Both the position numbers and the translations under genes were made by a program. The notes under the pieces were generated by a model, which did not search any database, was not told the DNA's origin, and saw only the letters and a program-made list of their open reading frames with translations. Below are positions 3,257-64,000 of a stretch of DNA of 64,000 nt, piece by piece; the stretch's first letter is position 1; each line of letters starts with the position of its first letter. This DNA comes from Bilabrum cf. latius (lineage: Eukaryota), in the NCBI GenBank assembly GCA_965178125.1, contig OZ237752.1, positions 1 to 64,000 of the forward strand, in the 5' to 3' direction.

Positions 3257-5638
3257 ATGCAGTTGCTTGAAGAATCGCGACAGCAGCCGTGGCTGTAGCG
3301 ACTGGGTTTGTTGACCAAATCAGCTTCGTAGCAAGTATCCAACAGTGAAGTCACCATTCACGGCAGTATCAATGTGTGAGTGATAGCAAGCATTGCATAG
3401 CATCTCCGCCATGTACATAGCATCTCCGCCATGTACTGTATATATGCATCGATTGTGGCCTTTACAAGCCAGTTTTGAGCGGCTCCTTGCAGGTGGATCC
3501 GAACCATGAAATTCGCATGGCCCCGGCAGTTGCTGCTGGTCTTAACCGCCGTAGTCCTCACTCAATTGCTTTCACTTAAGAACCTGCTATCACCCATGCT
3601 TCTCGGCACGCTAATCGACGGCGTATCACACTCAGCAGAGGAGTTGGGGGGGTCCGACAACAGGGACACTTACGTGAATCCCAGCAGCGGCAGAGGAGCA
3701 GGATCCGTTAGTTCTACAGAGGATGCCAATGTGTAGGCACTAGAATCTAGTGGGGGATCTCTCAACTGGTTATCAAGCGCTGCACCGCATAATTTTGGGA
3801 CGTTGGGGCAGTCACTTTTGCTGCTGCTTGCAGTGGAGATTGGGGGGGCCCTTCTAAAGGGTCTTTAGGAGGTGGCTACAGCTGAGCTCGGCGACAGAGT
3901 CACCCGTGATACCAAGTAGAGATTCATGCAGAGCGTACTAGCGCAGGAGCAGGCCTTCTTCGACAACACGCACACCTCGGTGCTATCCCAGGCGTACGAC
4001 CAGCTTGGGCACGTGTACGCGATGGTGGGGCAGCTGCTGCCCGACGCGCTCCGGAACGTGCTACAAGTAGGTCTTGCGGCAGCATATCTGCTTCGATCCA
4101 GCCCCGCGACCTGCGGCGCGCTGGTTGCGCTGCTGCCCGTGGTGGCCCTGGTGGAGCGGGTGTGCGACCAGCTGGTGAACGAGGCCCGGCTGCAGCTGCA
4201 GGCGCTGGAACGGGAACAAGCCAAACACAGGGGAGAGAGCTTGCGGGCGGTCGGTGCGATCAAGGCGTGGTCCTGGGAGGACAGGAGGTGCGGCGAGTAT
4301 GACAAGCTACTGGAGGAGGACGCGAAGGTTCGCACGTGGCTGACCATGGTGAAGGGGCTGCGTGGGGGGGTCAATGCGCTGACCCTCGCACTGGCGTCCT
4401 CGATCACGTGGTACATGGGCCTGCAGGAGGTGCAGACGGGGGTGCGCACCATCGGGCAGCTGTCCGCCAGCGCGGTGATTGTGGAGAGGCTGCGCACAGG
4501 GCTCGCCACGATGCTCAAGCAGAGCAGGCAGTTCTTCGAACACACCAGGGATCTATCTCTGGCCTATCGCATCATCGACCGGGTGCCACGCATGCAGTTG
4601 AGGTAGCTAGAGGACTGCAGCAGCGAAGTGGCACGTAGGGGGTCTTCGGAGGAGACAAGGGGGGCAGGAGGGGGTTCAGCGGAGGAGACTCAGGGGGCAG
4701 GTGCGGGCAAGTCCAGTGGACACATGCAATCAACATTGAGAACACCTCGCCAACCAATCCGCGTGGTGTTTGAGGGGGTCAAATTCCGTTACATTGCTGA
4801 CAATAGCCTGGGAATCAAGGAGCCAAGGCGGGGCCAGGGCCCACAGGGAGCAGGGCAAAGGAAGCAGCATCAACACAGGCCCTCCTCTGCCTCATCAGAG
4901 GGCAAGGGGACTAGTGCGGAGGTCCTCCGCGGGCTGGATCTGGTGCTCGCGCCGGGCAAGGTGACTGCAGTGTGCGGGCCCAGCGGATCTGGCAAGAGCA
5001 CTCTTGCTGCCCTGGCTCTGCGGCTGCACGACCCGACCGAGGGGCGAGTGCTGCTGGATGGACGAGACTTGCGGACCGTAGATCCAAGTGCACTGCACGC
5101 TCGCACTGCAGTCGTGAGCCAGGACCCTGTTCTGTTCTCTGCGTCCATCCGAGAGAACATCACGTTCGGGTGCAGGAGGCGAGACACTGGCCCCGGGGGA
5201 GGGGCATCCTCGGTGGAATTCAGCCTGGAAGAAGTGCAGGAGGCAGCGCGGCTAGCGCACGCACACTCGTTCATTACCCAGAAAGAGGGTGGGTACGACG
5301 CGCAGGTGGGGGAGCGGGGCTCGCAGCTGTCTGGGGGCGAGCAGCAGAGGGTGGCCATTGCCCGGGCCATCTTGGCTGATCCGGATCTGCTCGTGCTGGA
5401 TGAAGCCACCAGCGCGCTGGACGCGGTCAGTGAGGGTTAGGTGCAGCAGGCTCTGGACCAGGTGATGCAGGGGCGCACCGTGCTAGTGATCGCGCACAGG
5501 CTCGCCACCATCCGGAAGGCCGATCATATCGCCGTGTTGCGAGATGGGGTCATCGCAGAGCAAGGCACGCATTCCGAATTAATGGGGGTGCAAGGTGGCC
5601 TGTACAATGATTTGGTTCGTCAACAGGATGAATCCTAA
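3257..5638 (+). CDS. ABCB-type half ABC transporter (TMD+NBD)
   Basis: Walker [11 protein letters not shown]-loop VSQDP, signature LSGGEQQR, Walker [13 protein letters not shown]-loop IAHRL. Likely intron 3376-3492; the 5' exon is less certain. One frame interrupted only by TAG (3296, 3329, 3734, 3866, 3917, 4604, 5438). Ends TAA. Confidence 0.9.
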
Positions 5639-6042
5639 CCCAGGGGGTCCCCAATTTCAACCGGACCGCGGCAAGGAAAATCTAGATTTGGGTACATATT
5701 AGCACGCAACAATTGACTTCGCGAGGTTTTTTACAGTCCTTGCAGCTGCATCTTACTAGGAAGGTACCCAGGTAAGAGACTGGGTGTTTACTTTACTATC
5801 CCTTTACTTCTTTGTGCGCTGGGAACGTTGAAACAATGCCGTCGTGGGTGTTTGCTGGCCATGTTGTTGTAGTCGTTGAGTCGTGGGTGGTTTGCTAGCG
5901 AGGCACTCAACGCACTGATCCCTGATTGCAAGTCTTTTCAGAAACGGTCCTTGAGTCTTATTGTAAATCTGGCACTCTGTGCGTTTGCGCTATTATTTCG
6001 TTCTAATCGGTTGGCTACATCGTGCTATCGCAGCGAACCGCC

Positions 6043-7727: not shown

Positions 7728-9066
7728 TCACGCCTCCTCATCGGGCACCACCTTGTTCCCCTGCCAGGTGTAAAACCCGCGCCCTGACTTGCGGCCCATG
7801 CGGCCCTGGCCTACCATGTCCCTCAGCAGGCCAGGCACGTGGAAGGCGGGCTCGTCGGGGAACTTCTCGGTCCACCCCTCGAGGATGGACAGGCACAGGT
7901 CCAGCCCCACGTAGTCGGCCAGCATGAGCGGACCCATGGGGTGCCCCGCCCCCAGCTTCATGCCCGCGTCGATGTCGTCTCTCGAGGCCACGTCTCGCTC
8001 CCGCATGGCAACTGCCTGGGCAAGGTAGGGCACCAGCAGGCGGTTCACCACGAAGCCGGGGGTGTCCCCGCACGTGATCGCGGTCTTGCCCAGGCCATCC
8101 CTGGCCAGAGCAGTGGCTCGATCCATGACCGCGTCGGTGGTGTCGGCCCCACGGACCACCTCCACAAGCTTCCTGCGATACACCACGGACCAGTCAGGTA
8201 CGAGGAAGATGACATACGCACACAGCTTGAGAAACAAACAAACGCATGCACAGCAATTGGACACCACCGCATGTATGCACGAAAGCCCGCGCGACTCGGA
8301 GGCTCACATCATTTGCACGGGGTTGAAGAAGTGCAGGCCCACCAGCCGGCTGGGGTCCTTTACGCTGGCTGAGATGTCAGACAGCAGGAGCGAGCTCGTG
8401 TTGGAGGCCAGGATCGCGTCAGGGGCGGCGATCTCCGAGAGCTGCTTGAAGATGCCTCGCTTCGCCTCAAGGTTCTCGGTGGCCGCCTCGATGATGACGT
8501 CACACTCCGCCAGTGCGTCCATCGAGGTTGACGTGGACAGACGGGACAGTGCATCATCTGCGCTTGCTCTGGCAGCCGATTGGGCCTCATCACCTCCTTT
8601 CTTTCCCGCTCTTCGCACTGCCTGGTCCATGGATCCCTTAATCATGCCCATTCCTCGTTCGACTGATTCATCGTTTATCTCGGTTGCAACGACTTCGTAT
8701 CCTCGCTCAGCAGCTACCTGTGCAACACCGTGTCCCATCAGGCCCAGTCCAACGACGCCAATCTGCGATCATACAGGACTAGTAGCGCAAACTGCCTTGG
8801 TGCAGGAGACGGACGACATAATCGCCGCAACACGGGAAGGCACAAAAATGAACACAAACACACAATGGTCGTCCAAGTCTCACCTTTTTCACACCAGTCT
8901 ACCCGTGGGTGGCGTCTGCTGGACTGCTGCAACTTGGTGAGGATGCGATTCCCATGCGTCCAATTGAGCTGAGGAGATGTGATCCAGTGCACTTCAACTT
9001 GCAGCGGGTCAAGTGTCCCGCTGCAAGTCTAAATCCTGACGACAGCGCCCGGTTCATCTGCATCAT
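7728..9066 (-). CDS. 3-hydroxyacyl/3-hydroxybutyryl-CoA dehydrogenase, probable mitochondrial presequence
   Basis: GVVGLGLMGHG Rossmann motif, ASNTSS, GLHFFNPV, DTPGFVVNRLL, GHPMGPL. Introns 8173-8307 and 8763-8883. In-frame TAG at 8899-8901. Ends TGA. Confidence 0.92.
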
Positions 9067-9303: not shown

Positions 9304-11214
9304 ATGTATTCCCAGCAGCAATCTGCAGGTTGGCAGGCAGGTGGCGGCGCTGGGGGACACGGAGATGGAGCCAGCATGGGTGCTGGGGGTGCCTATGGAG
9401 GGCAGCGATAGTATGGTGGTGGGCAAGGAGGCCGCGGCCGTTCGAGCGGCCCCGGGAACCACAAGTCGTCCGTGATGGAGAGGTTCGTGCATGGACGGTA
9501 CGTAAGGCAAGATCGTGCAAGCAAGACGCAGTCTGCATAGGCTAGACGTATGGAGCGAGAGGAAGAGCGGAAGCGCGGCTTTTTCGTTGTATCAGCTCAT
9601 GACGACGCTGTCGCACATACAGGTAAGAAGGTTCACAGCCAGGTTCAAACTGTTTTCCGCAATCCATGGATGCTTATATCGCGTAATAATTGCATCACCT
9701 CGTTGCGCCGCCTTCTACTCGCAGCCGGCAATGCTGCCAGCTTCATGCTGGCAGGCCCTGCGTTCGGCGGGGAGGAGCCCAAGCCCGAGGACGTCCCGTG
9801 CGTGACCATCCAGGGGATGGGGCGGGCCGCCACACACGCCATCGCGGCGGCCGAAGCGGCGAAGCGCCTCGTGCGCGGGTCCCACTCGGTCACCACGGTG
9901 GGCAACAGCGTCCGGGAGCAGGTCTGGCTGCCCCTCGAGGAGGGCCTGGACAAGGTGGTCATCAAGCAGGACGTCGCTTGCGTCACCATCGTGCTCTCGT
10001 GCTCGCCACAGGCCCTGGCAGCCGCCGCCAAGGATGCGGGGGCTGTATACTTGGGCGCTGAGGACGCCTCTGACGTCCGCTCGCTGGTCGGCTACTCGGG
10101 CCCTCTGCCATCCGCGGAGGTGGCGGGGGGACCCCCGGGCCCCGAGGGGCTGGCCGCGATGGATATGGCCCTCCGGCAGGTGATCGAAATCATGCAGGTG
10201 GCAGACCCCATGCAGCCGGTGGACATGCCGCAGAGGGACAGCGGCAGGGGCCGAGGGAGAGGCGGGAGGGGCAGGGGCCGAGGCGGCCGGTTCGGGGGTG
10301 GCCGGGGCCGCGGGCGCGGGCGCGGAGGGTTCCACTCGGACTTTGGTGGGTTCATGGGCGGTTTCACGGCCGGTTACGGCGACCCGGGCTACCAGGCCAT
10401 GATGGCCGCAGCCCAGATGCAAGCGGCGCAGGGGGCTGGTGCGGGCGTGGCCCCTGGTAGCCCGTACATGGCGGGGGGAGCCCCTGGCCCCTGGGGAAGC
10501 GCACCCCCCGCGGGCGGTGCCCCGGGGGGTCCGGGTCCAGCCGCTCGGCAGTGGGGTTGGGCGGGGGCTCCGGGGGGTGCCCCTGGTCCCCAGGGTGGGG
10601 GTGTGCCCCCTGCCTCTGGCGGGATGGTGCCAGGGTCCGCAGCGCAGTGGGCGCAATACCAGCAGATACAGCAGCAGCAAGCGTACCAGCAGCAGCAGCA
10701 GCATGCCGCCTACATGCAGCAGTAGCAGCAGCAGGCTGCCGCTGCAGCCCAGCAGCAGCAGCAGTAGCAGCAGGGCGGTGCGGGCTTCCCGTCTGGGTAC
10801 GCTGCATCGGCCGCGGTCCCGGGAGCTGTCGCTGAAGGCGGCAAGCCCACGCCGGAGGCAGGTGCTGCAGGTGCGGCAGGGGCTGGGGCTGGCCCTGCTG
10901 GGGAGCGCATCGTGGATGTTGTAGACGCTTAGAACCAGAAGAACATGAGGCGCATCACTGCCCAGCGGTCGGCCTCTCTGGAGACGCTCTCGGCGAGGGC
11001 TTGCGCTGCCTACGGGGTGCCTGCGCTGGCACTCTACGGGGTGGAGCAGCCTCCCGGGGAGCAGGCGCGGCTGGTGGCGCTGGGCTCGGATGCGGCTCTG
11101 CAGCAGGCCTGGATGCAGGCGGAGGCGCGGGGCGGACCGCAAGCCAGTCTGGTCGTGTATGCGCAGGCGGTGCAGGCGCAGCCACAGCAGGCAGGAGAGG
11201 CAGGCGCCACGTGA
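9304..11214 (+). CDS. Alba (Rpp25-like) protein with RGG box, polyQ and a small C-terminal domain
   Basis: TIQGMGRA...AEAAKR...VWLPLEEGLD...VTIVLS resembles the Rpp25/Alba family, followed by RGG repeats. Probable intron 9623-9724. In-frame TAG at 9409, 9538, 10723, 10765 and 10930. Ends TGA. Confidence 0.8.
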
Positions 11215-14978: not shown

Positions 14979-17900
14979 TCAGCCCCGCGAGGACCCCTGC
15001 TTCCCGCCGCGTCTGCCGCCGCGATATCCACCGCCGCCCCCACGCCCGCCGCCCCACCCGCTCGCGCGCCCCTGCCTGCGCCTGCCCCCGCCCTGCCGCC
15101 CGCCGAAGCGCCCGCCGCTCTTGCCGCCCCACCGGTTGCCATCGCCCGCCCGATCCCCAGCAGCATCACCCGCGGCCCCCTCTCCGTCCTCGCCGTCCAG
15201 CTCGGCCTCTTGCGCGCGCCCCCTGGCCCGCGCGCTCAGGGCCCACTCGGCGTCCCGGAGGCCGTACCTGACGGACCTCACCGCGGCCAGCCCCGCCTCT
15301 GCCACCTTGGAGGCAGGTGCCTTGCGGAGGGCGAGCACAGGGCCGCTCCCCCGCACCTTTCCATCCGCTGAGGTCTTGCTCTCTCCTCCAGCGTCATCGC
15401 CCGCCTCCTCCGACTCGCCCTCCCCGCGCTCCGCCCAACTCGCCTCCACGCGGCCCGTCGCCACCATGCGGCTGGCAGCCGCAAATGCCTCAGCCTCGCT
15501 CAGCCCGAACCTCCTGGCCAGCGCCTCGGCCCCGATGTCCCGGAAGCAGCCCCCGCGCGCCACCAGCACGCACTCCATCGCGGCGCGCTTGACAGCCCGT
15601 GCCAGCCTGCGCTTGACTGCCAGAGCCGCCGATGGGCCTGACCTCCTGGCCATGCAGTCCCACCCGGGGGCCTGCAGCACCAGCTGCAGCGCCTTGCGCC
15701 AGCCGCCGTCCAGCAGCGACACGCCGGCGGTAGCCGCCAGCTCCATGGTGGACGAGGGCGGCAGCTGCCACGAGTGCTCGCCGGCCCCCTGCCTGCCCCC
15801 GCGCTGAGTGGAGGACCCCGCCGCAGTGCCGGCCAGCACCTTCTGCTTCTCGCACACGGTGGCAGGAGAGGCTGCCACAGCGCCCGCCCCGCCTGCCCTC
15901 GACACGGCCGCGCTGGTGCGGGCCGAGCCGCCGTCCGCCTCCCCGTCGTCGCCCAGCAGGGCAGCCGCGCCTGCCGCCGCCACTGAGGCAGCCACGTTGG
16001 GGGTGCCCTGCCCGCCGCTGCCGGCAGTGCTCGAGCCGACCTCGGCAGCAGCCGCCGCCGCAGCCTCGGCCTCCGCAGCCGCGGTACCCTGTCCGGCTAG
16101 CCTGGCGCTGCCCCTCCAGTCCGCCACGCAGGCCCGCAGGCGGTTCAGGAAGGCGCGGGTGCGATCGTCCGACCGCCCGCCGGTGCCGACTCGCGCGCGG
16201 CGGGGCGTCTCCACGACCATGGCCGAGAAGTGCAGCGCCGCCTCCACCTCCTGGTCGGGCAGCCAGCGGTGCGCAGGCACCAGCCTCCTCCGCTCCTCCC
16301 ACAGGTCTCTGCGGGCCCTGGCCAGCGCCTGCTTGTCCGTGATGTCCCTAGTGCGGTCCCTGCCCACGGCCTGCCCCACCAGGGGCCAGAACCGGTGCCC
16401 GTGCTCGAACCCACGGAAGTGGTCCAGCGCCCGCTGCCACTCGCCCCGCTTGAAGGCAGCCAGCCCGAGGGCAACCTGCGCGCGGTTGTTCAGCACCTGC
16501 ACCTCTGCATCCGCCGACTCGAGCTCGTGGGCCTCCAGGGGGCGGCTCCCCGCCCGCAGCGCCAGAGCCTCCCCCAGGCTGCCGTCCATCGCCAGACAGA
16601 AGACCTTGAAGAGCAGGCAGCGGCGCACGAGGTCGGTCGTCCACGACTCGCGGGCCGCCCCACCCCAGGATCCCGCGCCGGACGCCGCTCCCCCCGCGGC
16701 GTCTGCCGCCCCCTCACCCGCGCCGCTGGTTACCGCCCGCTCCTCGGCTGCCCCGATGGCGCAGTGCCGCAGCACTGCCGAGGTGAGTGAGTCCACGGCC
16801 GCGGTGGTGGCAGAGGCCCTGGCCTTGGCGGCCACTGGCAGCGGCAGCCCGGCGGTCTCGTTGCTCTGCAGGGAGGCCAGCAGGTAGGCGGCCGATGCAC
16901 GCAGCATGTCGGCGCCCACCGCGTCGCTGGCGCGGGCCTCGAAGGGCGCCACCCACGCGCCGGGAGGCAGCCGCATGCCGCCGGATGGGGCGGCCCCCTC
17001 AGTGGCCTGGGCAAACGCCGCCTCAAACAGGGGCCGCGCCCCCGCCGAGAGTCCCGCCGCCACTTCCATGTCCACACCAAGGGTGGGGCCGTCCGCCGGG
17101 CCCCCCGGGGTGGGTGCGGCTCCCAGCACGGAGCCCGCCTCCCGCACGGCGGACAGGGCCAGGGTCACCAACGAGGAGGGCGCGGCAACGGAGGCGGCTC
17201 CCAGGATGGCGTCATCGCTGGCCACCCCGTCCGCGGCCAGCACGGCGCGCAGTGGGGACAGGGGACCCACCAGGCGGGCTGGCACCAGCCGGGCCCCAGC
17301 AGATCCGGCGGCACTCCCGTGGAAGTCGATCGCCTGGCTGGCCGTCTGCTTGGCCGACTTGAGCGCGGTCTCTGCGGATGCCCCGCCCATCACAGCGGCC
17401 ATCACCGCCAGAGGCGAAGCTGCCCCGGCGGCCGCACCCGTCCAGCCCGCCTCGTCCGCCCCCGCGAGCATCTGCTGCACCCACTCGAGACGGAAGGCGG
17501 GCAGCTCGTTGGCCCGGGCCCGCGCCACGGCCTCCGCCGCTGCTCCCGTCAGCCCGTGCCAGACCTCGGCCGACTTGGCCAGGAGCCTGGCGGCCCCCTT
17601 GGCATCTCCGCACCTGGCGCTCCATGCCGCAGCCCGCTCCCACAGCGCCGTCATCCAGAGGCACTCATCGCGCACCCGCTGGGCAAAGTCTCCGCTCGTC
17701 GCGTCCGGGGAGCGAGTGGCCCGCGGCATCGCCTCAACCTCCGTGGCGCTGGCGACCGCCCTCGGAGCCAGGTCCACGCCCAGCTCCTGGTCCGAGGGAC
17801 CCAGCTGGCGCAGCTTGCGCGTGATGGCAGAGGAAAAGGCGCCCGCGGTTGAGGACGCGGGCTTGGGCGCGGCCGCAGTCGGCGTCGCGTCGTCGCCGTC

Positions 17901-20289: not shown

Positions 20290-20905
20290 ATTTGTTTCTA
20301 GTCTACCTGCTATGAATATGAATGCAACGTTACGCTCATGTCTTGTGGTTGAAGCACAGGGACCGGACAGAGTACAATTGGGACAAGTGCATTCGAAGTA
20401 CCAGTGGCTGGTTTGATATGATACGCCATTTCATTCCCGATCCGACCATATCAGCGCATGGATACGTGAACATATCACAATATGGCAGCCGCTCACCTCG
20501 ATACCTTCACTACACTTGGCTGAGAAGCGCGAGTTACACGAGCCGAAGAATGCCTGGTCCAAGAAGTAGCGTGTTGTTTAGCAGTATGACGAGTGTCGGA
20601 GTCCAACAGCAAAGCTGGCGGAAAATTGGAAATAGGGCCCATTTGGAACATAGATACATACATCAAAGGGTCACATTTTAGGATCATTACTAGAAACAAT
20701 ATAGTCCTGGGTTGTGGGGCTGGATTAGTGATCAATAATTGTCCGGATAGGTGATCTTTGATCGCTGGCCAGTTGCTGCAGATCATCACTGGTACAGGGC
20801 AATTGAAGCGCAGCCACCGATTGTGGAGGTGATATAGTGCAGCAGGTAATTAAATTTGCATTTTTGGGTGCACACGAATTCGATAGCGAAGTATCTTGGT
20901 CCCAG

Positions 20906-44605: not shown

Positions 44606-44667
44606 TCCCAAGCTGCCTGCAACTCGAAAACAGCCACATGCACTCACGCTCATCACACAGCAAGCAG

Positions 44668-46797: not shown

Positions 46798-47085
46798 GCG
46801 CAAGCCAGGAGATCAAATAAGTATATTAAGTATAAAAAGGGCCAAAGTATGGTACCCCCGCCGCAAAACCTGAGCTGTGAGCTACAGTGGATTGTGGACA
46901 CGGATGATTCGTTGGCCGCGCAAATTCGAGCTGCGGAACCAGAAGCCGAGGAGCACCACAAGGTGCATCATGTCTCTGGCTGCATGCATGTCGCACTCAT
47001 GTATTGTGTGCCATGCTCGTCGATTAAGCGATAGACCAATTGGTTGCACCAAGTGTTTTGGACGAAAATCTCTCCCACCTACCAG

Positions 47086-48267
47086 TCAAAGCTCCTCGCT
47101 GCCTCGTGGGGTATCACCAGCGGGAACCTCTGCATCCCCGTCCCACAGGTCCTCCCACCGCTCTCCAAGCTCTTCCCTCACGTGTTGCTGCCCTCGGATG
47201 AGCCTCCACCCCTGGTCCAGCCCCCGCAAGCTCTCCATGTCCTCCTCGCCCAGCTCGAAGTCGAACACCCGCAGGTTCTCCTCGATCCTAGACGGGTTCA
47301 CGCTCTTGGGGATCGCAACTGTACCGTCCTGCACCGCCCACCGCAGCAACACCTACGCGGGAGACCTCCCGAGCCGAGCCGCGATGTCCTTGATCACGGG
47401 GTGGGCCATGGGCACCGGGTCCTCGTTCCTCTAGTGCCGTGATGGACGGTCCGGTGAGCCCAGGGGGGAATACCCCGTGAGCACGATGTTGTGCTCGTCG
47501 CAGAAAGCCTTGAGCGTGGGCTGCTGCAGGAAAGGGTGCCTCTCCACCTGGTTCACGGCGATGGGGGCAGTCAGTGGAGCGGTTCCTTCCTCCAGCATGC
47601 GGGCCCCCGCTCCCCACTCGTCCTCCTCGCGCGTGGGGGGCACGTCTGCATTGAACACATCCAGAAAGTGCTTCAACTTCTTGGTTGAGAAGTTGGACAC
47701 TCCCAAAAATCGGACCTTCCCATCGTTTACCAGCCTCTCCAGCTCCCGCCACACCGCGACGATCCTGTCCTTGTCGTAGCCAAGGGGAACTATCGAGCCA
47801 TCCTGCGACTTCTCCGCGGCACATGGCCAGTGCAAAAGGACCAAATCGACGTAGTCTAGCTGCAAATCTTGGAGCGAAGCCGTCACTGCCTCGTATACCC
47901 TCCCGACGTGCATGTCTGTTGGCATCACTTTGGTGGTCACCCACAGGTCTTTGCGCCCAACAGATCCGTTCACTGCTGATAGAGCGTCCCTGATTCCAGC
48001 GCCAACCTCCTCTTCGTTGCCGTACGCTCTGGCACAGTCGATGTGGCGATAGCCACTTAAGATGGCGTGCTTGACCGCCGCACGGACCTTCCCTGGCGCG
48101 CTCTGCCAGGTTCCTAGCCCAATGGCAGGCATCTTGATTGATCCTACAAGCCCGGAGTCGCTTTCAAACTGTTCCTCGAGCGGTGCCATAGTTTCGGCTG
48201 CAACTGCCACTTGGCAAGCTGGTAGGCAAATCGCGGCCATCACAGCCCACAGCGATAACGCTTGCAT
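47086..48267 (-). CDS. Aldo-keto reductase with signal-peptide-like N-terminus
   Basis: MPAIGLGTW, GYRHIDCA..YGNE, DLVLLHWP, LGVSNF, NQVERHP, YSPLGS, SPA[TAG]VLLRW, IPKS. TAG at 47431 and 47353. Ends TGA. Confidence 0.93.
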
Positions 48268-48443
48268 GGTGACGTAGTAAGAAGCCCAATTATTACTAAG
48301 TAGTACTGGCGGGCGATTCAGCAGAGGATCTGAACGGTCACAAGGCCCCGATTTAAACTCTATTCAATTCGTTGGATTGGATCGAAACGAGAAGAGAATG
48401 AGAACTAATAATCGCACGAATTGGACATGTGCTCGCGAATGAC

Positions 48444-51400
48444 TCATACCCTCGATGCGGCCTAGAAGCCTGGTTTGCCTTTGCTTGGGGTAGATGTGCT
48501 GCTGCCTGCCGCGGCTGCATTCCCCTCCGGAGCGCTCGCCGAGTTGGTGGCCGGCGTGCTGGCCTTGCTCGCGTCTTCCTTGGATTGGTCCCCCACTGCC
48601 AGCTTGAACGTTGTCGCCAAGGAGAACAGCGGCAGCTCGGTCCACGCGTCCCCCCAGGACTTCCCGTCCAGCACGCCCCGGATCAGCAGGAACCAGATGT
48701 ACCTGTAGGCCGCGTCCAGCACGATGAGCGCGGTCACGACAAAGGACAGGATGGCCAGCAGACCCCAGGCATCCCTGGCTTGGTTGTTCAGCGCCTGCAC
48801 CACCAGCTCGGGCATGGACTCGAACACGAGCTCGCTCACGAGCATCTGCTTGAATGCCACGGGCAGCAGAGCGCTGGCAGCGACAGCAGCTCCCGCAGTT
48901 GCAGCCCCGTCTGCCTCGTCCGGGATCTTTGCCTCCAGGTCTAGAGTCCACACCTTGATCCACACAGCCTGCACCGGGCGCAGGGCCAGCAGTCTGGTGG
49001 CATACAGCAGCATGCCCGTCGCCACGACAAGCCCCAGCGCCAGCACGCTGCCCACGAGGAAGAGCACCAGTGCCAGCAGGGACAGGGCCCAGTACAGGGG
49101 CTGCAGCACGAGCACCAGGAGAAACTTGCCCAGCGAGTCGTTCTCTTCGAAGGGAAGCAGCCAGGGGCTGGAGGACGTTGCCTTATTCCAGGCCTCCACG
49201 CCCATCATGTCCCCGATGGCGCCCCTCAGGAGGCCCATGCCGATGGGAAGGGCGAATAGCAGCCGTAGGCCACCAGGAATGCCAGCACCAGCACGAAGAG
49301 CAGGACCAGGAACGCGCCCGAGAGAGCTACAAGCAAGACCATGTACACGGCCTGTAAACCCAGGCCCACGAGACACAGCGCCAAGCTGATGCAGCCCATT
49401 ACGAGAAAGAATGGGAAGAGGCAGACGAACGCTAGCAGCCACACGATCATGGTCTCACAAGGCCCGTCTCCCTCCAGGTCCTCTGCCACGCTCTCTGCAG
49501 AAGAGGCTACAAACGCCGGAGACAAGAAAGCGTCATCCTCCCCGATCCACTCTCCCAGCATCCCAAGCGGCGCGAACAGCACCTCCGAGTCGGTCAGGCC
49601 CTCCCACATGCCGGCAATCAGCTCGAAGGCGGCGTCGAATGGATCCCAACCGAGGATTGATTCCAGATCAGACCACTCCTTTCCCAGCGCCAGAGTCTGT
49701 CCCTCCTCCAGCCCCCGCGGCAGCAGCATCACCAGGGCAGGGTCTCCCTTGAGCGTGATCAGGAACGGCAGCACGGGCACGATCGCAAGAGACGCAAAGC
49801 TCGCCCAGAACAGTGTCTCGCTGTGGTACTCCTCCGTGAACGTGTACAGCACGTCCGTCGCCAGGTCGGCGAAGGCGATGCCAACCAGCACGAACGAGTC
49901 CAGGTCAGCTCCGGCCAGCAGCAGCCCCAGCATCATGATGGCCCCTGGGATGGCGATCCCGATCCCGACGGTCAGCTCGTCCCACTTGGGCCCCGGGGTG
50001 CAGATCTTCACGCCCGTGCTGCTCTCGATCACATTGCCAGTGAAGTCATCGATCTCGCGCTCCGTGATCTGGGTGCGCACCAGGCCCCACGGGAAAGGGC
50101 AGGACGTGCAGTTGTACCGCGAAAACCCATCGCATCGCTGGCAGGACTCGTGGCATGGAAAGCACACGCGATCCAGCTGGGAGGCAGGAGGGTGCAGAGG
50201 ATAGCGACCGTCGGCCCACGCCTGAATCTCGGCACCAGTGGCGGACACCGCAACAGGCTTACTCCCGGCAGCATCGTCGTCATCGTCACCTCCATCATCG
50301 GCGGCATCCTGCGAGCCGGTTCCGTCAGCCAGTCCCCAGCTCACCAGCGCGTCCTGCAGCTCCTCGAGCCAAGAAGGCGAGCTCGCAGATCGGGGCTGCA
50401 GCACTGGCAGCTCCTCGATGGGCGTGCCTGTCTGCTCGTGGAGGAACTGCGCCGCTGATGCCCGATCGACGCCAAACATGCCATCGCCGCAGGCGCGGCA
50501 GGCCCGGTCTCCGTACAGCGTGGGCCCTCGTGCCTCCTCGCTGTCTCCGGTGCACACCGTGGGCGCACTGCACTGCGGCTCGGCTAGCGCACCTCCCGTG
50601 TAGTACGCGACAGACGCATCCTCGCCGCATGCTGCCGTGGAGCGATAGTCCAGGCCGATGCCTGCCTTCGACAGCAGGAGCGCGCCGACTCTTTCGGCCT
50701 GGGGGAGCGAGGCAGACCCCAGCGGCTGCACTGGGAGCTTGTAGTCGCCATGTAGGACCAGGCTGTGGTTGACCCGAGTGGCCGTTGCGTTGACCAGACT
50801 CGGGTCTGCATCCGCCGCCATGGTGTCTCGTCGCACGGCGGCTCTGAGCAGCTCGTAGGTCTCGGTGGAGCGCTTGAATCGGATCTTGCCGATAGAGACG
50901 TCCAAGGTGCTGTCGCTGCTCGCCGTGTCGGACGACTGGCTGGTCGACGTGTGGTCCAGCGCGTAGCCAGCCAGAATAACGCCCGACGGGGAGGACAGAT
51001 CCGGCGACATGGACACGAGCAGGTCGCTGTAGGCCGTGACGGAGTCGGATGCGGCGGAGGTCTGCTGCCGCTGCGGCGAGGCGATGCCGAATTGGCCGAT
51101 GGTTGCATGGATTGCGCCGTGCCTGGACCGCACAAGCTGCGGCACAGTGCCTCCGAACCGGTCTGCCACGGACGCCCCTGCGCCCTGCCCGAGTCTTCGC
51201 ATCGCCTCTGCGCGGATCCAGACCATGGATAGTGCCGACAGGGAGCCTGTCGCACGATCCATGACCCAGAGGTAGGTCTGCGAAGCGTCCAGCGTCATGT
51301 CAACCAGGCCTCTCGGCGAGTCCAGCACGCCCACGGCGGCCCAGACCCACCCACCGCCCTCACTGGGCTGGTGCCCCGCCACGAGGACAGTCTTGGTCCG

Positions 51401-52795
51401 GCGACACACGTCCTCGACGGCCTGACCCCCGCCAGTGGTCCCCCAGATCATGTCTTCGTCGTAGTGCAGCGTGGTCAGGACCAGCGGGCTGGCCCGCATG
51501 CCTCCATCCCCCCCAGTGCCCTCGAACGCGTACAGAGACACGGGGCCGAAGCCCGAGGGCTTGCCCAGCCCCAGCCCAGGGGCCAGCGCGCTGCACCTGG
51601 CCCTCGCCGCCAGCGGACTGAGCTGGTCCTGCCCCGCCACCGCCCTCTCTTCAAGGACGGCCATCCTGTCGAGCAGAGGGGCGTCAGCGGGCAGCTGCAC
51701 AGGGAGATAGCTCCCGTTCTGGGCGGGCCGGGCGTGGTCAATGTCCTCGCTGTGGGCGGCAAGATCCACAGACCCCGCCGCGTCCACCACGGTGGTTGGG
51801 TTCACCTGCCACCGCAGGGACTCCTCGGGAGCGGCTGCCTCCGCTAGTCCATCGAGGAAGAACGGGTCCTGGGACTCGGTGCCCACCACGCGCATGAGCC
51901 AGAGGCTGGGCGGGTAGGAAAATCCCATGGCCACCATGGTGCTGCCCCGGAGGCTCTCTGCGGCCTCGGTCTCGAGCGGAAGGGCGGCCATGCGGCTCAC
52001 GCGGCCCAGCGCAGTCAGGTCGGAGCCGGGTCCAAGCACCCCGCGCAGGGCGGCGGGCTCCAATACAGCCGTCATGGAGCCGCGAGCAGGGCTCAAATTG
52101 TCTGGTCTGGATACCTGGGACCACGCTGCGGCATCATCCTGCAGCTGCTCGTGGACAGCGAACACGGCAGAGCGCATGGCGCTGTTCCCGTGCCTGGCCC
52201 ATTGCACGCGAGCCAGGCCGGGCGCAATGCTGCTGCCACGGATTCCCACAGCGTGGACAGGCAGCAGAGTGGCTCCTGTTATTGCGTCGAACAGGATGGG
52301 CACCGGCGGCAGGACGGACGCCCAGCGCAGCGGAGTCTGGGGATCGCTGAGCGATGCAACAACCCTCGCAAAGTTGCTGCCTGCCCTGGCGTCGAAAAAG
52401 CCCTTGGTAATGCTCCACGCCTCAGCATGGATAGGGTTTAAGTCCTCTCCAAAGGAGAAAACACGCAGAGCGCCGCGAATCGCATCTGCTGGCAGGCTCT
52501 CCAGCGAGCCCGAATCGGCTGCAGCAGCATTCACGTCCAGAGGGCTCGTATACATAAATGCCGCGTCCTATGGGAGGGCCAGCACGCACGATTGCGTATC
52601 TGATGCAATGCCATCCACCGGCTGCAGGGCTGCAGGAACAGAACTATTCGAGCTCGATGAGCAGAGGAGACCGTCGACATCTGCTGAGTCGGTCGATCTT
52701 TGAATCCAGGCATCTAGTCTATCAAGAGCACCATGTACACCATTGGATGCAAACACAATTAGTGTAAAATAATATACGGCCATCGTCGGCGACAT
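48444..52795 (-). CDS. Large type-I/multipass membrane protein with furin-like Cys repeats; apparent 1-nt frameshift near 49263
   Basis: Signal peptide, long ectodomain, CFPCHESCQRCDG...CTSC, then many TM segments and ELVFESMPELVVQALNN. TAG at 52568 and 48462. The frame switches within GCC TAC GG CTG CTA. Ends TGA. Confidence 0.7.
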
Positions 52796-53000
52796 GCACT
52801 CCCCCACGCGCAAGATATGGGTCGCAGGCGCCCATCAGCTGTACACACAACTTGGTCGCATTTGGAGCCTCTGATGAGTGGAGACTGGCAGTTGATGGGC
52901 CCAAGGTTGATGGCTTTGTCCCATCACCTACCCACACTTCTCCACAGGAAGCTGCCAAACAAACAATATCTTCATTATATCATCGATCCCGATTCAGCCC

Positions 53001-54341
53001 TCACTCACCAACCTTCCCTTCTGCTGCTGAGCCTCCCTCGGCACCGCCAGCTGCCTCGGCTGCCTTCCTCCTGGCCTCCCCTGCCTCGGCTGCCTTCCTC
53101 CTGGCCTCCCCTGCCTCGCGGTCTGACTCATCGTCCCACAGGTCCTTCCAGTCCTGGCCTTCCACCGTGAATTCAATGTCCCCGTTCGCCAGCCGCTGGT
53201 GGTAGTCCAGCCCCCGCAAGCTCTCCATGTCCTCCTCGCCCAGCTCGAAATCGAACACCCGCAGGTTCTCCTCGATCCTAGACGGGTTCACGCTCTTGGG
53301 GATCGCAACTGTACCGTCCTGCACCGCCCACCGCAGCAGCACCTGCGCGGGAGACCTCCCGAGCCGAGCCGCGATGTCCTTGATCACGGGGTGGGCCATG
53401 GGCACCGGGTCACCCTCGTTGATGAACCGGGCGGGGCGGTCCGGGGAGCCCAGCGGGCAGAAACCCGTGAGCACGATGTTGTGCTCGTCACAGAATGCCT
53501 TGAGTGTGGGCTGCTGCAGGAAAGGGTGCCTCTCCACCTGGTTCACGGCGGGGAGCACCTTGAGCGGCTCGTCCGGCCCTCCCCCCTCCAGCAGAGCGGC
53601 GAGCTTCTTGGAGGTCATGTTGGAGCAACCGATGTGACGAGTGAGTCCCTTGTCCACGGCCTGCTCCAAGTCCCTCCACACGGCCAGGTAGCTCTCGGGC
53701 GAGTAGCCCAGCCGCTCCGACTTGGGCGGCGGGAAGCTCGAGGGGTCTTGCTTCCAGAAATAGGGCCAGTGGATCAGGACCAGGTCCAAGTACTCCACGC
53801 CGAGATCCTTGAGCGTGTCTTGGATCCTCGGAATGACGAGGCCCGGGTGGCACAAGTGCACGAACACCTTTGAGGTGAGGAAGAGGTCCTCCCGCTTGAC
53901 CACGCCGCGCTCGAACAGGTCCTTCAGGGCTTCTCCAACCTCCTTCTCATTCCCATACGCGTGCGCGAGATCCAAATGCCGGTATCCAGCCACCTCGATT
54001 GCGTGCTTCACAGCCGCGGCGACCTTGCCAGTCTCGCTCTTCCACGTGCTGCGACTCGGAGGGAAAGATCGTGTGGGCGCCGGTGGGATGATGGCTGCCA
54101 TGCTGGACAAAGCGCTCGCATCGTGATGGACGTTCAAACCAAACCAAAGAACCCTAAATTACTAATTTTGATGTTCGAGGTTCTTCCTATCTGCTGTTCG
54201 GCCGTCTGGCCGACACAGGTTGAACCGACGTTGAGCTCACCCTAGCCCGATCTGCGGCATAAGCGCTCCAGTATACAGCTTTAGCGATGCTGATTTATGC
54301 GCTTTGGTCCTGGGCTCTTCAGCATCGCCAACTCCAGCCAT
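53001..54341 (-). CDS. Aldo-keto reductase (cytosolic type)
   Basis: MPQIGLG|TW, GYRHLDLA..YGNE, DLVLIHWP, IGCSN, SPAQVLLRW, IPKS. Intron 54049-54240. Ends TGA. Confidence 0.95.
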
Positions 54342-57200: not shown

Positions 57201-59720
57201 ATGATATTTGTCAGTCCTTTCATCATGTTGGCAAGTGCTGTACTTGCATTGGATCCGCCAGCCAAACCCAATTTCTTGTGAGAGTCGTCCCACCGCAATG
57301 CCTTTTCGGTTCTGTCCAATGTATCTATCTGCCTGAGCCGGCAGGAACGACTGTGAATCTCTTCAGCTGATAGTGCATAATCGGTCGTCTGTCACAGGTT
57401 TCTGATGGTTGATGACTTGCGCGTGGACCTCCCGAAGTACCAGACCAGCGCGCCGATCTTTGCGCCTCATTTCAAGCGCTTTGCCGAGCAAAGCGCAACA
57501 TTCCGGCGCGCTTACACAAATCAGGCCGTGTGCTCACCGTCTAGAAACTCGTTGCTGACCGGTTTGCGCCCGAACAGCACGGGAGCCATCTAGTTCATCG
57601 ACCACGCGAAAGCGCCTGTTTGCCTGCCAACAGAGGGGCGGACGAACTACTTTGGGAACGATTTACGGCAGTTCAACTGGCCAAAATCGATGGGAGCCTC
57701 ATCTGCATGCTGTGATGCGTGCACCAGGGATCCACAGTGCTCTTTCTGGACGTACAACTACGACAAGCAGGTGTGCTTCCTCAAGACGAGCGACTCGGGC
57801 CGCAAGCCCCAGAACAACACGGTATCGGGGCCCTCAGGACGAGCAGTTCCCACGGTGTCACTCCCCCAGTACCTCAAGGAGCACGGGCAGTACCTGTCCC
57901 TGGGCACCGGCAAGATCTGGCACCCGGTGAGGACGGTCCCGTCTCCTGCCCATCAAGCCCTGTGCCACATGCCCACGATGTCGGACCACCGCCTTTCGTC
58001 CTCCCTCTCATATCATTTTCTTCCTTTTCCTCCCATCTCCACCCCCTCCGCATCCCACTACCCATCCCATTCCCCACCCCTATCCACCGCGCAGGAGGAG
58101 GGCGGTTTGGACGGTCCTGGCCTGGTCCCCAACATGGACCCTCCGTCCTGGACCAACGCGAGCATTCAGTACCCCGCGAGGCTCAACGAGACGGGCGAGA
58201 CCTGTCCATTCGGAGAGGGCTTCACCAACTGCTACTTCATCCCCCCCATGCCCGGTTGTCTTAAGGGGGGCACCAACGCGAGCCATGGCGTGGTCTGGGC
58301 AGACGAGATCCAGCGAGCGTGCGGGATGAACGCCTCGCTGGACGGGAGCACGGACCCTCCCAACCAGCTCCTGTTCGCGGACCGATCCATCGCGCTGGAC
58401 GCCCGCCGCAAGATGCAGTACGCGAAGCACAATCTCGACAGCACGGGACAGCCCTTCTTCCTCGCCGTTGGGTTCCGCAAGCCGCACCTGCCCTTCCGCA
58501 CCCCGTGGGAGTGGCTCAACACCTCGTATCCAGACTGGGAGAAGCTGCCACTGGCCCAGCAGCGCGTGCTGCCGCCTGACGTCCCCCCCATCTCCCACCA
58601 CGACAACCGCTGGAAGGACGCATCCTCGCTCACAGAGCCCATGCCCAACGCCACCGCGAGGCTACTGCGGGCTGCCTACTACTCGGCGATTTCGTGGATG
58701 GACTCGCGTCTCGGCCAGGTGTTGGATGACCTCCGGGACATGGGGCTGGAGAACAACACGGTGGTGACCCTCGTGGCGGACCACGGGTGGAACCTGGGTC
58801 ACCAGGCAGCGTGGCGGAAGTTCGCGTTGAACGAGAACGCCGTGCGGGTGCCCTTCCTGGTGCGTGTGCCCTGGCTGCAGGGCGCCTCCCGAGGTGCCAT
58901 GCTGGAGTCCATCGTCGAGCTGGTGGACCTGTTCCCCACGGTGGTGGACCTGGCGGGTTTGCCCATGCCCAGTCGCGCCCACGGGCAGCAGAACTTGGAC
59001 GGGCAGTCCGTCGTGCCGCTGCTGATGGCGGCGGGGAACTAGAAGGGGAGTGGGCGAGGGGGCGAATTGAAGCACCGCAACGGGGATACTACTTAGTCAC
59101 CCGCGGAGCAGCCAGTCGCTGGTGGCGACAATCGTCATGGTGACGGCGGTGCGGCTGGTGGTGCAGCCCGGCCTGACCCGTGGGACCCTGCGGGTGGAAA
59201 GGGGTACGCCCTCAGCGTGTATCCCCGGTGCCCTGCGGACCCGGTTCCCTCGCACGACCACCTGTGGCAGGACAACTGGTGCGAGTTCTACGACAGGACG
59301 GTTGTTCCCTACCTTGGCTACTCGCTGCGAGTGCCCGGGTGGAGGTACACGTACTGGTGCGCGGTGCGGTGGAACGGGACTGCCCTGCTGCCCGCGTGGG
59401 GTGAGGGCGCGCTGCCACGGGATTCCTTCGGGTATGAGGAGCCGTGGGTGCCCGAGGGCGGCTGGGATGCGGTGCGGGAGGGCGCGGGGCTCGGGCTGGA
59501 AGAGCACGAGCTGTGGCGCTCGTTGCAGGCCGGCATGCGGGGAGACGCGTGCATCGGCGAGGAGCTGTACGACCACGGGGGCGCTTCTGGTGGATCGGAT
59601 GATCGGGAGGAGGACCTTGACTCGATCGAGGGGGAGAACCTGGCGGACCAGCGGCCGGACATCGTCGCGCAGTTGAGGCTCAGGCTGCAGGAGCTGTTCT
59701 AGGGCGGGTGGCTGCAGTGA
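57201..59720 (+). CDS. Iduronate-2-sulfatase-like sulfatase with inserted PAN/apple domain
   Basis: PNFLFLMVDDLR, FGly motif CSPSRNSLLTG, GKIWH, VGFRKPHLPF, ADHGW, RVPFL, ELVDLFPT, GYSLR..WRYT.W. Introns 57278-57397 and 57927-58094. TAG at 57591, 59040, 59094 and 59700. Ends TGA. Confidence 0.92.
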
Positions 59721-60412: not shown

Positions 60413-63400
60413 ATGCCTACCAGCCGCGGGAGAGCGCAAGGCGCGCAGCTCCCATATGCAACGAACAAAACCTTGCCGGGCGAGCCCCCGAGCCTACAAC
60501 GCCCAGCTAGAAATTCTACACGACGCACAGCAAGATTGTTGCTTACTATTTTCGTGCTTGCGCGGTGCGAGGCCTTTTTGCCTCAGGACTAGTCGAAAAC
60601 GGAGACGGATCACATCTTTGGGTGAGGAAGACTTATCTCAAGAAAATGCACGATGAAACAATTTAAAATCCCGCCCGAGCCGGCACAGCGTATTTTGGTT
60701 TAACGCTGTTCTCCGCGCGCGCACAGGCACTCGACCCCTACCTATAGTCCGCAGCCAGCGGCTGGGCGGCAAGCAGCAATGCTTGATGAGTACCAGCCGC
60801 CGGCGCTAGGATAGCACAAGCACTGGCAGCATGCAAAACGCCAGCTGTCAGAATCATCTAGCATCTATCACCGCACTATCGATCTGAGCAACAGCGACGG
60901 CAAATGGGTCACGGAAACGCAGGCGCATACGGTGAACGGTAGGCAGTTTAGCACAGCGAGCGCCACGGTGGTCGACCGCAAAGTCACCCTCTCACAGACA
61001 CAGTGTGCCGAGGCGAGGGCCTACGTGTCTCTGGGCAAACTGGAGGGCGATGTTTCCTTCGCATACAATGCCACCATGACCAAGACAAACTTATACACGC
61101 AGCAGTTCCATGTATACCTCGTGGCAGGGCAGGACCTGACAAACTCAACGATGCTTGCTGGAAAGTCTTGGGATGTAACGGCCAGAAGGGTCCACACCCT
61201 GCGCGCACTTGGGTTGCAGGGCGATCAGCAGGTGTGGATTTTGATCCGGTCGTGGGCCTACAACGCCGACTATTATGGCTGCCGCCCTGCTCATCTAATC
61301 TACAACACCGTGCCGGGGCCTCCAAAGTGCGGAACCGAATCTTATTGTTCCTCAAGCCCCCACGGCACTGGCGTGCTGACTGTGGACTTTGAAAAATGGA
61401 GTCTCCAGGTACAATTCAGGCCGACCCCAAGCCCAACCACAACTCCGTCCCCGACCCCGACCCCGACCCCGACCCCGAGCCCGTAGTGGTTCGTCGGGCT
61501 TTCCGAGGACGAGTACGTGGTGGATCCTGCCAGCGTGCCCGCGGGGTGGTCCTTGGCGACGGAGGCACACGTGGTTGATGGGACCCTGTACGACGACGCA
61601 GAGGCGGTGTTGCCTGACTCTGGCGGCAACCGTTCCGTGCACCTGCAGCAGTCGGGGTGTGCCTCTGCCCGTGCGACACTCGCCCTCGGGTACTTGCAGG
61701 GTGACGTGGTGGCCATCCTGAGCTTTGACTGGATTGCCAATGTAATGGAGCCGCCCGCGGAGCTGCACTTCATGCTGCTGGCTGGCAGTACTTTGCTGGC
61801 CGGGGGGTAGGCCACCTCTCGGGGGTTGGGGCAGTCGGTCTCCCTGCGTGCGGCTGGGCTGGATGGCACTCGGCGCATTGACCTGCTGGTGCGGCTGTGG
61901 CCCATCAGCGCCAACTACTACGGGTGTCCAGGGGAGGGCCCTCACATCGTGCGGCAGCCTCCTTATCGATCAACCTCGTGCGGGGTGCTGCCGCAGTCCA
62001 ACTGCACCCTGGCGATCGGCAGCAGCACCTCGGCCACTGTGCGGATCGCGCCCCAGAGCATCAAGGGCGACGACGGGGGCGGAGAGGAGCTGACGGGCGT
62101 TGACCTGCTGTCCATGGCGGGCGCAGATCTTGTGTTCGGGTTCAACGGCACGGGGTGCGGGGAGGCAGGCGAGGCGTGCGCAGCAGGTGCGCGGGCTTTT
62201 GGGGCCAACTGCACGGACATCATGGGTCTCCCTGGTGGTGGCGTTGGCTGCGGCCTCCGTGGGGTGGATCGGCTGCGGGTTGGGTCAGAGCAGGAGTCTG
62301 CTCTGATCCGGAGGCGGGGCTCGGGGCCACATCGCGTGCTCGCGTATCTGGATGTGGCTGGAGGAGTGCCGGCGGCCGCGACGGAGCTACGACATCAGAA
62401 GATATCAGCCACCCAGGGCGGCTTCACGGGGCAGCTGGATAATGGTGACTACTTCGGCATTTCTGTGGCATCGCTGGGGGACCTGGACGGAGACGGGGTG
62501 GTGGATATGGCTGTAGGGGCAGTGAATGACGGTGATGGGGCCTCTGGTAGAGATGCGGCGTGGGTGCTGTTCCTTCGATCCAACGGCACGGTGAAGTCGC
62601 ATCAGAAGATATCAGCCACCCAGGGCGGCTTCACGGGGCAGCTGGATGATAATGACAGGTTCGGCTTTTCTGTGGCATCGCTGGGAGACCTGGACGGAGA
62701 CGGGGTGGTGGATATGGCTGTAGGGGCAGTGAATGACGATGATGGGGGCAATTATAGAGGGGCTGTGTGGGTGCTGTTCCTTCGATCCAACGGCACGGTG
62801 AAGTCGCATCAGAAGATATCAGCCACCCAGGGCGGCTTCACGGGGCAGCTGGATGACTATGACTACTTCGGCTTTTCTGTGGCATCGCTGGGGGACCTGA
62901 ACGGAGACGGTGTGGTGGATATGGCTGTAGGGGCAGTGCATGACGATGATGGGGGCAATTATGGAGGGGCTGTGTGGGTGCTGTTCCTTCGATCCAACGG
63001 CACGGTGAAGTCGCATCAGAAGATATCAGCCACCCAGGGCGGCTTCACGGGGTAGCTGGATGATGATGACTGGTTCGGCATTTCTGTGGCATCGCTGGGA
63101 GACCTGGACGGAGACGGTGTGGTGGACATGGCTGTGGGGGCACTGAATGACGATGATGGGGGCTCTAGTACGGGTGCGGCGTGGGTGCTGTTCCTTCGAT
63201 CCAACGGCACGGTGAAGTCGCATCAGAAGATATCAGCCACCCAGGGCGGCTTCACGGGGTAGCTGGATAATGGTGACAACTTCGGCGTTTCTGCGGCATC
63301 GCTGGGAGACCTGAACGGAGACGGGGTGGTGGACATGGCCGTGGGGGCACATCAAGATAATGATGGGGGCTCTGGTAGGGGTGCGGCGTGGGTGCTGTTC

Positions 63401-64000
63401 CTTCGATCCAACGGCACGGTGAAGTCGCATCAGAAGATATCAGCCACCCAGGGCGGCTTCACGGGGCAGCTGGATGACTATGACTACTTCGGCTTTTCTG
63501 TGGCATCGCTGGGAGACCTGGACGGAGACGGTGTGGTGGATATGGCCGTGGTAGCACATCAAGATAATGATGGGGGCTCTGGTAGGGGTGCGGTGTGGGT
63601 TCTTTTTATGAACAACAGCCATGTGGCCCGAGCTCAATACCCCTAGATCTCACAGCCGTTGCCACCCAGCCAAGCGCATGCCATAGAAGGCTCGGCAACC
63701 AGACTGCAGGGAGGTGCTTGCTCTTTGGAGTCCTCGATTGGAGCCGTAGGTGGCAGTAATTCTCATGTGATCGTGCTGGAAGCCTCATGTGACTCGATGG
63801 CATCTGGCGGGGCTGGCATGCAAGACGCAAGCCAGGTGCACCACTCGTGGCTCTCTCGAGGAGGGTATCGCGTAAGGATGGGTGTCGGGTACGGATCTAG
63901 CGCGCCGACCCTATCTGAGCCTGGCACCTCCCCGGATGCAGTCCTGCTGCAGGGGAGCGCAGTGTGCTCCCTTGGGGACTCGAGGCAGGGCGATGGCAGT
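60413..64000 (+). CDS. Large FG-GAP repeat surface protein, running off the window
   Basis: One frame from about 60750 to the window end, interrupted only by TAG (60812, 61484, 61808, 63053, 63260, 63644). The 5' exon 60413-60621, with TAG at 60590, is tentative. Contains a PT linker and six FG-GAP units. Confidence 0.8.
62393..63610 (+). repeat. Six 207-bp (69-aa) FG-GAP coding repeats
   Basis: HQKISATQGGFTGxLD..D.FG.SVASLGDLDGDGVVDMAVGA...GA.WVLFL starting at 62393, 62600, 62807, 63014, 63221 and 63428. Confidence 0.95.

Follow-up and report, generated by a model that had tools for sequence, protein, structure and literature searches.

The window analysed here comprises the first 64,000 nucleotides of contig OZ237752.1 of Bilabrum cf. 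latius (assembly GCA_965178125.1, forward strand), a chromosome end at which CCCTAA telomeric arrays (positions 1-884 and 1757-2923) are followed, from about 3.3 kb on, by a gene-dense region of 60-73% G+C. Many of its genes carry TAG in frame. An earlier note on this DNA had proposed that TAG stands for glutamine in the nuclear code of this organism, with TAA and TGA still acting as stops. We compiled stop-to-stop frames in two ways, once under translation table 11 and once with TAG treated as a sense codon, and scanned 30 frames with a coding-like G+C pattern against Pfam. Taken as a whole, the statement that best fits our results, and that we hold to be probable, is that the nuclear translation system would translate UAG, most likely as glutamine, and would use UGA as the main terminator and UAA as a minor one.

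Under table 11 the TAG-bearing genes are split into pieces; read-through of TAG is required to recover whole domains, and about 20 genes then give full-length Pfam domains. The ABC half-transporter (3506-5638, plus strand) contains TAGs at 3734, 3866, 3917, 4604 and 5438 and ends at TAA; its frame (3479-5635, plus strand) matches ABC_tran over positions 1-137 of 137, plus ABC_membrane. The Rab5-like GTPase (29490-30287, minus strand), which has TAGs at 30153-30155 and 30066-30068 within its G domain, matches Ras over 1-161 of 162 in the frame 29493-30299 (minus strand). Five TAGs (42650, 43547, 43748, 43916 and 44543), one of them in the ERCC4 domain, lie in a Mus81-like nuclease gene (42512-44605, plus strand, ending at TAA) whose frame (42338-44602, plus strand) matches ERCC4 over 1-140 of 140. 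Aldo-keto reductase 2 (AKR2; 47086-48363, minus strand) has TAGs at 47431-47433 and 47353-47355, the second at a conserved glutamine, and its frame (47089-48363, minus strand) matches Aldo_ket_red over 2-289 of 291. The presence of TAG inside the conserved domains of Rab, ABC, aldo-keto reductase and Mus81-like genes, as claimed earlier, is thus confirmed by whole Pfam matches upon read-through. Skp1 (41524-42347, plus strand) has four exons, which we defined by RNA joints; exon 1 closes with the codon TAG (41572-41574), the stop is TGA 42345-42347 and there is a poly(A) end at 42373.

Pfam matches were also obtained in TAG-bearing genes for a PP2C phosphatase (20807-25069, plus strand; PP2C; N-terminal part long and disordered; twelve TAGs in the ORF, ending at TGA), an Nsp1-like nucleoporin (28202-29218, minus strand; Nsp1_C; TAGs 28844-28846 and 28751-28753), a PAN-domain sulfatase (57381-59720, plus strand; TAGs 57591, 59040, 59094 and 59700, the last one 5 codons before TGA), an FG-GAP repeat protein (60704-64000, plus strand, continuing past the window; six TAGs), an eIF3c-like protein (14979-20144, minus strand; eIF-3c_N; TAG 18069-18071, ending at TGA) and a Sin1-like protein (39023-41446, minus strand; CRIM; TAG 39329-39331, ending at TAA). 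Altogether we list 19 genes with TAG, of which 17 are firm and two, alpha-galactosidase and RTE1, are uncertain, and six without it (BTB, 3-hydroxyacyl-CoA dehydrogenase (3HCDH), NAC, aldehyde dehydrogenase, TrpB and aldo-keto reductase 1 (AKR1; 53001-54158, minus strand)). The earlier tally of 18 of 26 genes is close to this list. The TAG-free aldehyde dehydrogenase matches its Pfam family over 1-461 of 461.

The number of TAGs in frame, 59, is the same in our count as in the earlier one. It compares with 554 CAG and 90 CAA in 27 open reading frames (ORFs; 15,659 codons), which puts the share of TAG among presumptive glutamine codons at about 8% (59/703); the single TGA in this count comes from TrpB, which was read one base off frame. 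The Pfam-matched stretches comprise 4,249 codons, the bounds for FG-GAP and PP2C being approximate, and include 11 TAG, no TAA and no TGA. TAGs are evenly distributed along the 15 ORFs in which this was scored (12, 5, 10, 11 and 9 per successive fifth). We also compared the sequence beyond each type of codon where 60 coding-like codons lead up to it. Past an in-frame TAG, 19 of 22 frames contain no TAA or TGA for 60 codons, with a median coding score of +5.9, as against 6 of 23 frames open for 60 codons and a median of -13.9 past TGA. The three TAA cases, one of which is an antisense frame, gave a median of -10.4. An earlier, stricter version of this test (40 codons, strict threshold) yielded only 4 TAG cases. 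The context of glutamine runs was considered as a further line of evidence and rejected: two TAGs lie in such runs, but there is no overall enrichment beside glutamine codons.

Not every TAG in an open frame is coding. In the TrpB frame, TAG 38330-38332 lies inside an intron that is spliced out in RNA, and TAG 38546-38548 is out of frame once this 224-base intron is spliced. Removal of the intron restores a normal TrpB N-terminus and leaves a coding sequence with zero TAG. The earlier mention of a TAG in a "PLP-Lys motif" hence does not apply to TrpB; it may refer to the TAG in an unmatched gene at 34320-36113.

Ends inside the window could be scored for 19 ORFs; 16 are TGA and three are TAA, in agreement with the earlier claim that every complete gene ends at one of these two codons, and TAG is not required as the end of any ORF. 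Ends at recognisable C-termini are all TGA or TAA (Rab, Skp1, NAC and ABC). That ends often fall just after a sensible C-terminus is likewise supported: in the Rab5-like gene TGA comes right after the C-terminal CAC, and the ABC ORF ends, at TAA, within three residues of the end of solved homologues, the PDB alignments crossing TAG 5438 and stopping 2-3 residues short of TAA. UGA is kept as a terminator and is not read through. The sole in-frame TGA, between two ORFs of 3HCDH, is part of a GTGAGC...CGCAG intron whose removal gives the expected sequence, so that, as had been noted, none of the genes has to be read through a TAA or TGA. This intron (8175-8308, minus strand) is of frame-keeping length, and its GTGAGC donor mimics TGA read-through. 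We conclude that TGA is clearly a stop and that TAA, on the evidence of three ORF ends, probably is; of the earlier claim that both still terminate, the part on TGA is well supported by the ORF ends and by the drop in coding score, and the part on TAA is only probable. The distance from stop, TGA in both cases, to poly(A) is 66 bases for NAC (31587-31655) and 26 bases for Skp1 (42345-42373), and both of these measured 3′ untranslated regions (UTRs) are very short.

To establish what the mRNA carries, we compared contigs over 28401-48400 from a DNA run (X2) and from three runs (X5, X6 and X7) of two studies other than that of the source. The X5-X7 contigs contain seven joints with GT..AG or CT..AC ends and have poly(A) ends at 31655 and 42373, all of which are missing from X2. 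These three runs are not recorded as RNA; we took their contigs to be mRNA-derived because of the spliced joints and poly(A) ends. No letter in them differs from the window anywhere in 28401-48400. Of the 17 TAGs in a credible coding frame within this region, 15 lie in listed contig pieces with zero differences, and two (35172 and 42650) fall outside all such pieces. An X6 joint spans the TAG of Skp1. Both Nsp1-like TAGs are in X6 and X7 pieces with no other letters, as is the Sin1-like TAG in pieces from the same two runs. The Rab5-like gene is covered by an X7 contig (29677-30315) and AKR2 by an X6 contig (47173-48341), again with no other letters; four of the five Mus81-like TAGs fall inside RNA contig pieces, and all four TAGs of an ORF at 44668-46812 are in an X5 piece with no other letters. 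The check on mRNA suggested in the earlier note, run here on RNA-derived contigs, therefore found T kept in spliced and polyadenylated molecules, and neither CAG in the reads nor mRNA edited from U to C, which the note had named as grounds for refutation, was seen in these contigs. Since spliced, polyadenylated contigs keep TAG, the covered sites cannot be due to assembly error, to full U-to-C editing or to hidden introns, and in-frame UAG occurs inside conserved coding regions of mature mRNA. From the continuity of domains together with these spliced contigs we conclude that TAG is almost certainly a sense codon.

We next consider which amino acid TAG specifies. Residues aligned to each codon were read from 120 homologues for ABC, 119 non-self homologues for Rab and the 150 best representatives for AKR2, and log-odds were summed across the 962 columns in which 30 or more residues were aligned. 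As a control, 51 of the 52 codons represented by five or more columns were assigned their standard meaning, as were 4,345 of 4,600 seven-column subsamples. For the seven TAG columns the summed log-odds were +8.3 bits for glutamine, -4.6 for leucine, -4.6 for threonine, -5.7 for lysine, -16.9 for glutamate and -28.9 for tyrosine. When the strongest column was dropped, glutamine was still at the top (+3.9 versus -1.7). The mean log-odds for glutamine is 1.19 at TAG columns, as compared with 1.14 at 48 CAG/CAA columns. The TAG column in the AKR2 motif SPAxVLLRW has glutamine in 144 of 170 aligned stretches, and leucine in 3, among the 150 best representatives.

Comparisons within the window point the same way. 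At the SPAxVLLRW site the TAG of AKR2 is matched by CAG in AKR1, the TAG-free paralogue, and the surrounding block of 69 codons contains only two other differences, both synonymous. In the FG-GAP gene, one motif codon is CAG in four of six tandem units and TAG in the other two (63053 and 63260), within 16 otherwise base-identical codons. In all three paralogue or repeat comparisons the partner of TAG is CAG, and never TTG or CTG. Judged from these alignments, the meaning of TAG is very probably glutamine.

Several observations weigh against this reading or narrow its base. Only seven columns could be scored, the majority of TAGs being in sequence that is disordered or specific to the lineage; all data come from one subtelomeric 64-kb window. 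In the ABC motif SEGxVQQALD, valine (48) and leucine (41) come close behind glutamine (58) among 204 residues. At Rab site 74 the column holds 42 lysines, 41 threonines and 8 glutamines among 120. Two sites favour leucine or valine: Rab site 45, where 108 of 119 homologues have leucine, and the TAG in the Mus81 motif GDFxW, which aligns to leucine in zebrafish and valine in human in a set of four solved Mus81 sequences. The glutamine assignment proposed earlier is accordingly upheld by the column sums and the three CAG/TAG comparisons, and is in tension with these two sites. TAG adjoins glutamine codons in 4 of 59 cases, compared with 92 of 644 for CAG and CAA, which is no enrichment. For TAA, the case as a stop draws on three ORF ends, and its absence from the 4,249 domain codons has little power, about one being expected even if TAA meant glutamine (there are 14 CAA). 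Contigs lose rare variants, so partial editing of the mRNA is possible. Two TAGs stand 5 codons before an ORF end (sulfatase 59700, and the ORF at 48444-49454). A sulfatase TAG site aligned to PDB sequences has serine, aspartate or asparagine opposite it; we judged it uninformative and did not use it.

Could UAG be a sense codon for another residue, leucine in particular, as in the rhizarian exLh and three uncultivated phyllopharyngean ciliates? Such codes exist, according to the accounts in PMC5304391 and PMC11687900, and Rab site 45, the Mus81 site and the frequency of valine and leucine at the ABC site would suit one. The summed log-odds, the AKR2 column and the three CAG partners all speak against leucine, so that the correspondence with leucine expected of such a code is not seen. 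At Rab site 45 itself the best non-self match (P0123; 58% identity over 243 residues), the closest homologue, has glutamine, the sole one among the 119, and also shares the unusual alanine of the query just before the site. We regard leucine or another residue as very unlikely.

A code in which UAG is ambiguous, specifying glutamine inside genes and terminating near the 3′ end of the mRNA, as in Condylostoma and karyorelicts, deserves somewhat more weight and is nonetheless unlikely. Short 3′ UTRs accompany context-dependent codes, and the two measured here are very short; the two TAGs close to ORF-ending TGAs would also fit. By our own estimate from TAG frequency, chance alone would place about 0.6 TAGs this near to an ORF end, so two are not significant, and wherever the C-terminus is recognisable the gene closes with TGA or TAA. 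Occasional termination at TAG may still take place. Finally, the TAGs might not be translated at all, being assembly errors, codons edited to CAG in RNA, parts of missed introns or marks of decaying subtelomeric pseudogenes. The window is subtelomeric, C-to-T decay of CAG yields TAG, and two TAGs in ORF frames did prove to be intronic or out of frame. Against this, T is retained at the sites in the spliced, polyadenylated contigs that two other studies yielded from RNA; single-copy core genes (Skp1, Rab5-like and eIF3c-like) are involved; the domains are uninterrupted; and the restriction to TAG in the Pfam-matched codons would arise from random transitions with p ~0.006 (from the counts of CAG, CAA, CGA and TGG). 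This explanation is largely refuted, and we consider it extremely improbable.

We compared UAG as a glutamine codon in this window with described codes, as far as these are set out in the relevant parts of PMC5304391, PMC11687900 and PMC9523058. The fornicate Iotanema spirale has a nuclear code in which UAG is glutamine and UAA and UGA are stops (PMC5304391). As there, UAG alone appears reassigned, glutamine is the residue indicated, UAG is not seen as a clear terminator, and UAG sites and canonical glutamine sites fall on glutamine-dominated columns in similar shares. The two differ in their gene ends, mainly UAA in Iotanema (104 of 119; PMC5304391) and TGA in 16 of 19 ORFs here, and in their setting: Iotanema is an anaerobic gut flagellate, whereas the present window has 3-hydroxyacyl-CoA dehydrogenase and aldehyde dehydrogenase genes, 60-73% G+C and CCCTAA telomeres. 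UAG is also glutamine in the phyllopharyngean ciliates Hartmannula sinica and Trochilia petrani (PMC11687900), which resemble the present case in that only UAG is changed and is widespread as a sense codon; UAA is their preferred stop, whereas we find a 64-kb, multi-gene, GC-rich chromosome end with introns of 88-268 bp. In exLh and three TARA phyllopharyngean ciliate genomes UAG is leucine (PMC5304391, PMC11687900). These share with our window the uncoupling of UAG from UAA and the expectation of a tRNA with anticodon CUA, and differ in the amino acid, leucine scoring 13 bits less than glutamine in our columns. The UAG-only reassigned organisms described in these sources use UAA as their main stop (PMC5304391, PMC11687900).

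Codes in which both UAA and UAG are glutamine, found in Tetrahymena, hexamitin diplomonads and some ulvophytes (PMC11687900, PMC5304391), likewise turn a stop into glutamine by one transition from CAG or CAA; in them UAA is glutamine too, whereas in the present window TAA closes three ORFs and no gene requires it as an internal codon. The phage "code 15" of crAss-like phages, with TAG as glutamine (PMC9523058), has the same codon table but belongs to viruses and a bacterial-type translation, in contrast to the eukaryotic nuclear chromosome studied here. Of the features that a code of the same type as NCBI table 15 should display, three are seen: UAG stands in frame inside conserved coding regions of mature mRNA, UAG sites correspond to glutamine in homologues, apart from the two sites noted above, and UGA terminates.

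The G+C content, telomere repeat, multi-gene chromosome, introns (GT..AG, 88-268 bp) and aerobic-type enzymes (3-hydroxyacyl-CoA dehydrogenase and aldehyde dehydrogenase) fit neither ciliates nor a fornicate. Ciliate macronuclear genomes are AT-rich and have other telomere repeats, and 3-hydroxyacyl-CoA dehydrogenase and aldehyde dehydrogenase are not known from fornicates. Homologues of the Rab at 53-60% identity are spread over many eukaryotic groups, no relative above 58% identity being present in the protein collection searched, and those of the ABC transporter are largely bacterial. We give about even odds to the proposal that the window represents an independent, so far undescribed origin of a UAG-only change to glutamine, in an aerobic eukaryote with introns and a GC-rich genome, belonging neither to the ciliates nor to the fornicates, that has UGA as its main stop; both the independence and the undescribed status are plausible. 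We found no report of UAG as glutamine in a GC-rich non-ciliate in the literature covered, supplementary tables, which might list further lineages, being outside its scope. A Carbon-A preprint was considered as a matching report and rejected, since it concerns Tetrahymena only.

To decode UAG as glutamine, the organism would need a tRNA-Gln with anticodon CUA, which does not decode UAA; reduced recognition of UAG by eRF1 would probably be required as well, judging from what is established for such codes (PMC5304391). A tRNA scan of the 64-kb window found none, an Rfam scan of the same window gave zero matches, and eRF1 is not among its genes. Were the origin independent, UAG could have been freed by GC-driven stop-codon bias (codon capture) and might still terminate near very short 3′ UTRs.

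Few cases in which UAG and UAA are uncoupled have been described, namely Iotanema, exLh and three phyllopharyngean ciliate lineages in the accounts of PMC5304391 and PMC11687900. Such codes show that the two codons are separable by the translation machinery, and a further case in a GC-rich genome with UGA as main stop would be of interest, as it would let one test whether scarcity of a stop codon under GC pressure opened the way. DNA and RNA data and a telomere-level assembly already exist, so that a suppressor tRNA, the glutaminyl-tRNA synthetase and changes in eRF1 are directly searchable. There is also a practical consequence: standard gene callers shorten the proteins of this organism, the Rab itself being represented among public proteins by a fragment of 188 residues (P0121), and the right table is needed for annotation.

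The remaining ORFs with TAG gave no family assignment. An ORF at 9304-11214 (plus strand; no Pfam match at E<=0.001) has five TAGs, two of them within glutamine runs, and ends at TGA; the ORF at 44668-46812 (minus strand), with its four TAGs, has no Pfam match either, nor have the ORFs at 48444-49454 and 49226-52834 (both minus strand), which have one TAG each (48462-48464 and 52568-52570). An Atlas search with the table-11 ORF 49229-52567 produced no usable match. The gene at 34320-36116 (plus strand, 598 codons) has a high coding score on both sides of its TAG (35172-35174); it has zero Pfam and PDB matches, and no homologue was found among 8,000 candidates scored. Extra X2 contigs at 35768-35933 and 37290-37760 lie in the 3′ part of this gene (34320-36113) and in TrpB and depart from the window by 27 listed single-letter differences and 3 single-letter indels, none at a TAG; they may represent a diverged second copy or allele.

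Some features of the window are of interest in their own right. The two CCCTAA arrays are separated by a 155-bp repeat (5.2 copies, 884-1696), and a 57-bp repeat (2.4 copies, 2924-3061) directly follows the second. An internal CCCTAA array of such length is unusual and may mark a healed or duplicated chromosome end. G+C peaks at 73% over the eIF3c-like gene (16001-20000), whose product has alanine-rich, glycine-rich and acidic low-complexity runs, only about 110 residues matching the family. The start of the Mus81-like ORF falls within the 3′ region of Skp1. AKR2 (47089-48363) and AKR1 (53004-54158) lie 5 kb apart; their N-terminal halves have diverged, and their C-terminal 115 codons are near-identical, with few and mostly synonymous differences, which suggests gene conversion or strong constraint. 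The six tandem 207-bp units of the FG-GAP gene (62390-63630) each open with the base-identical 16 codons and vary in the remainder, and non-synonymous differences outnumber synonymous ones in 15 of 15 unit pairs.

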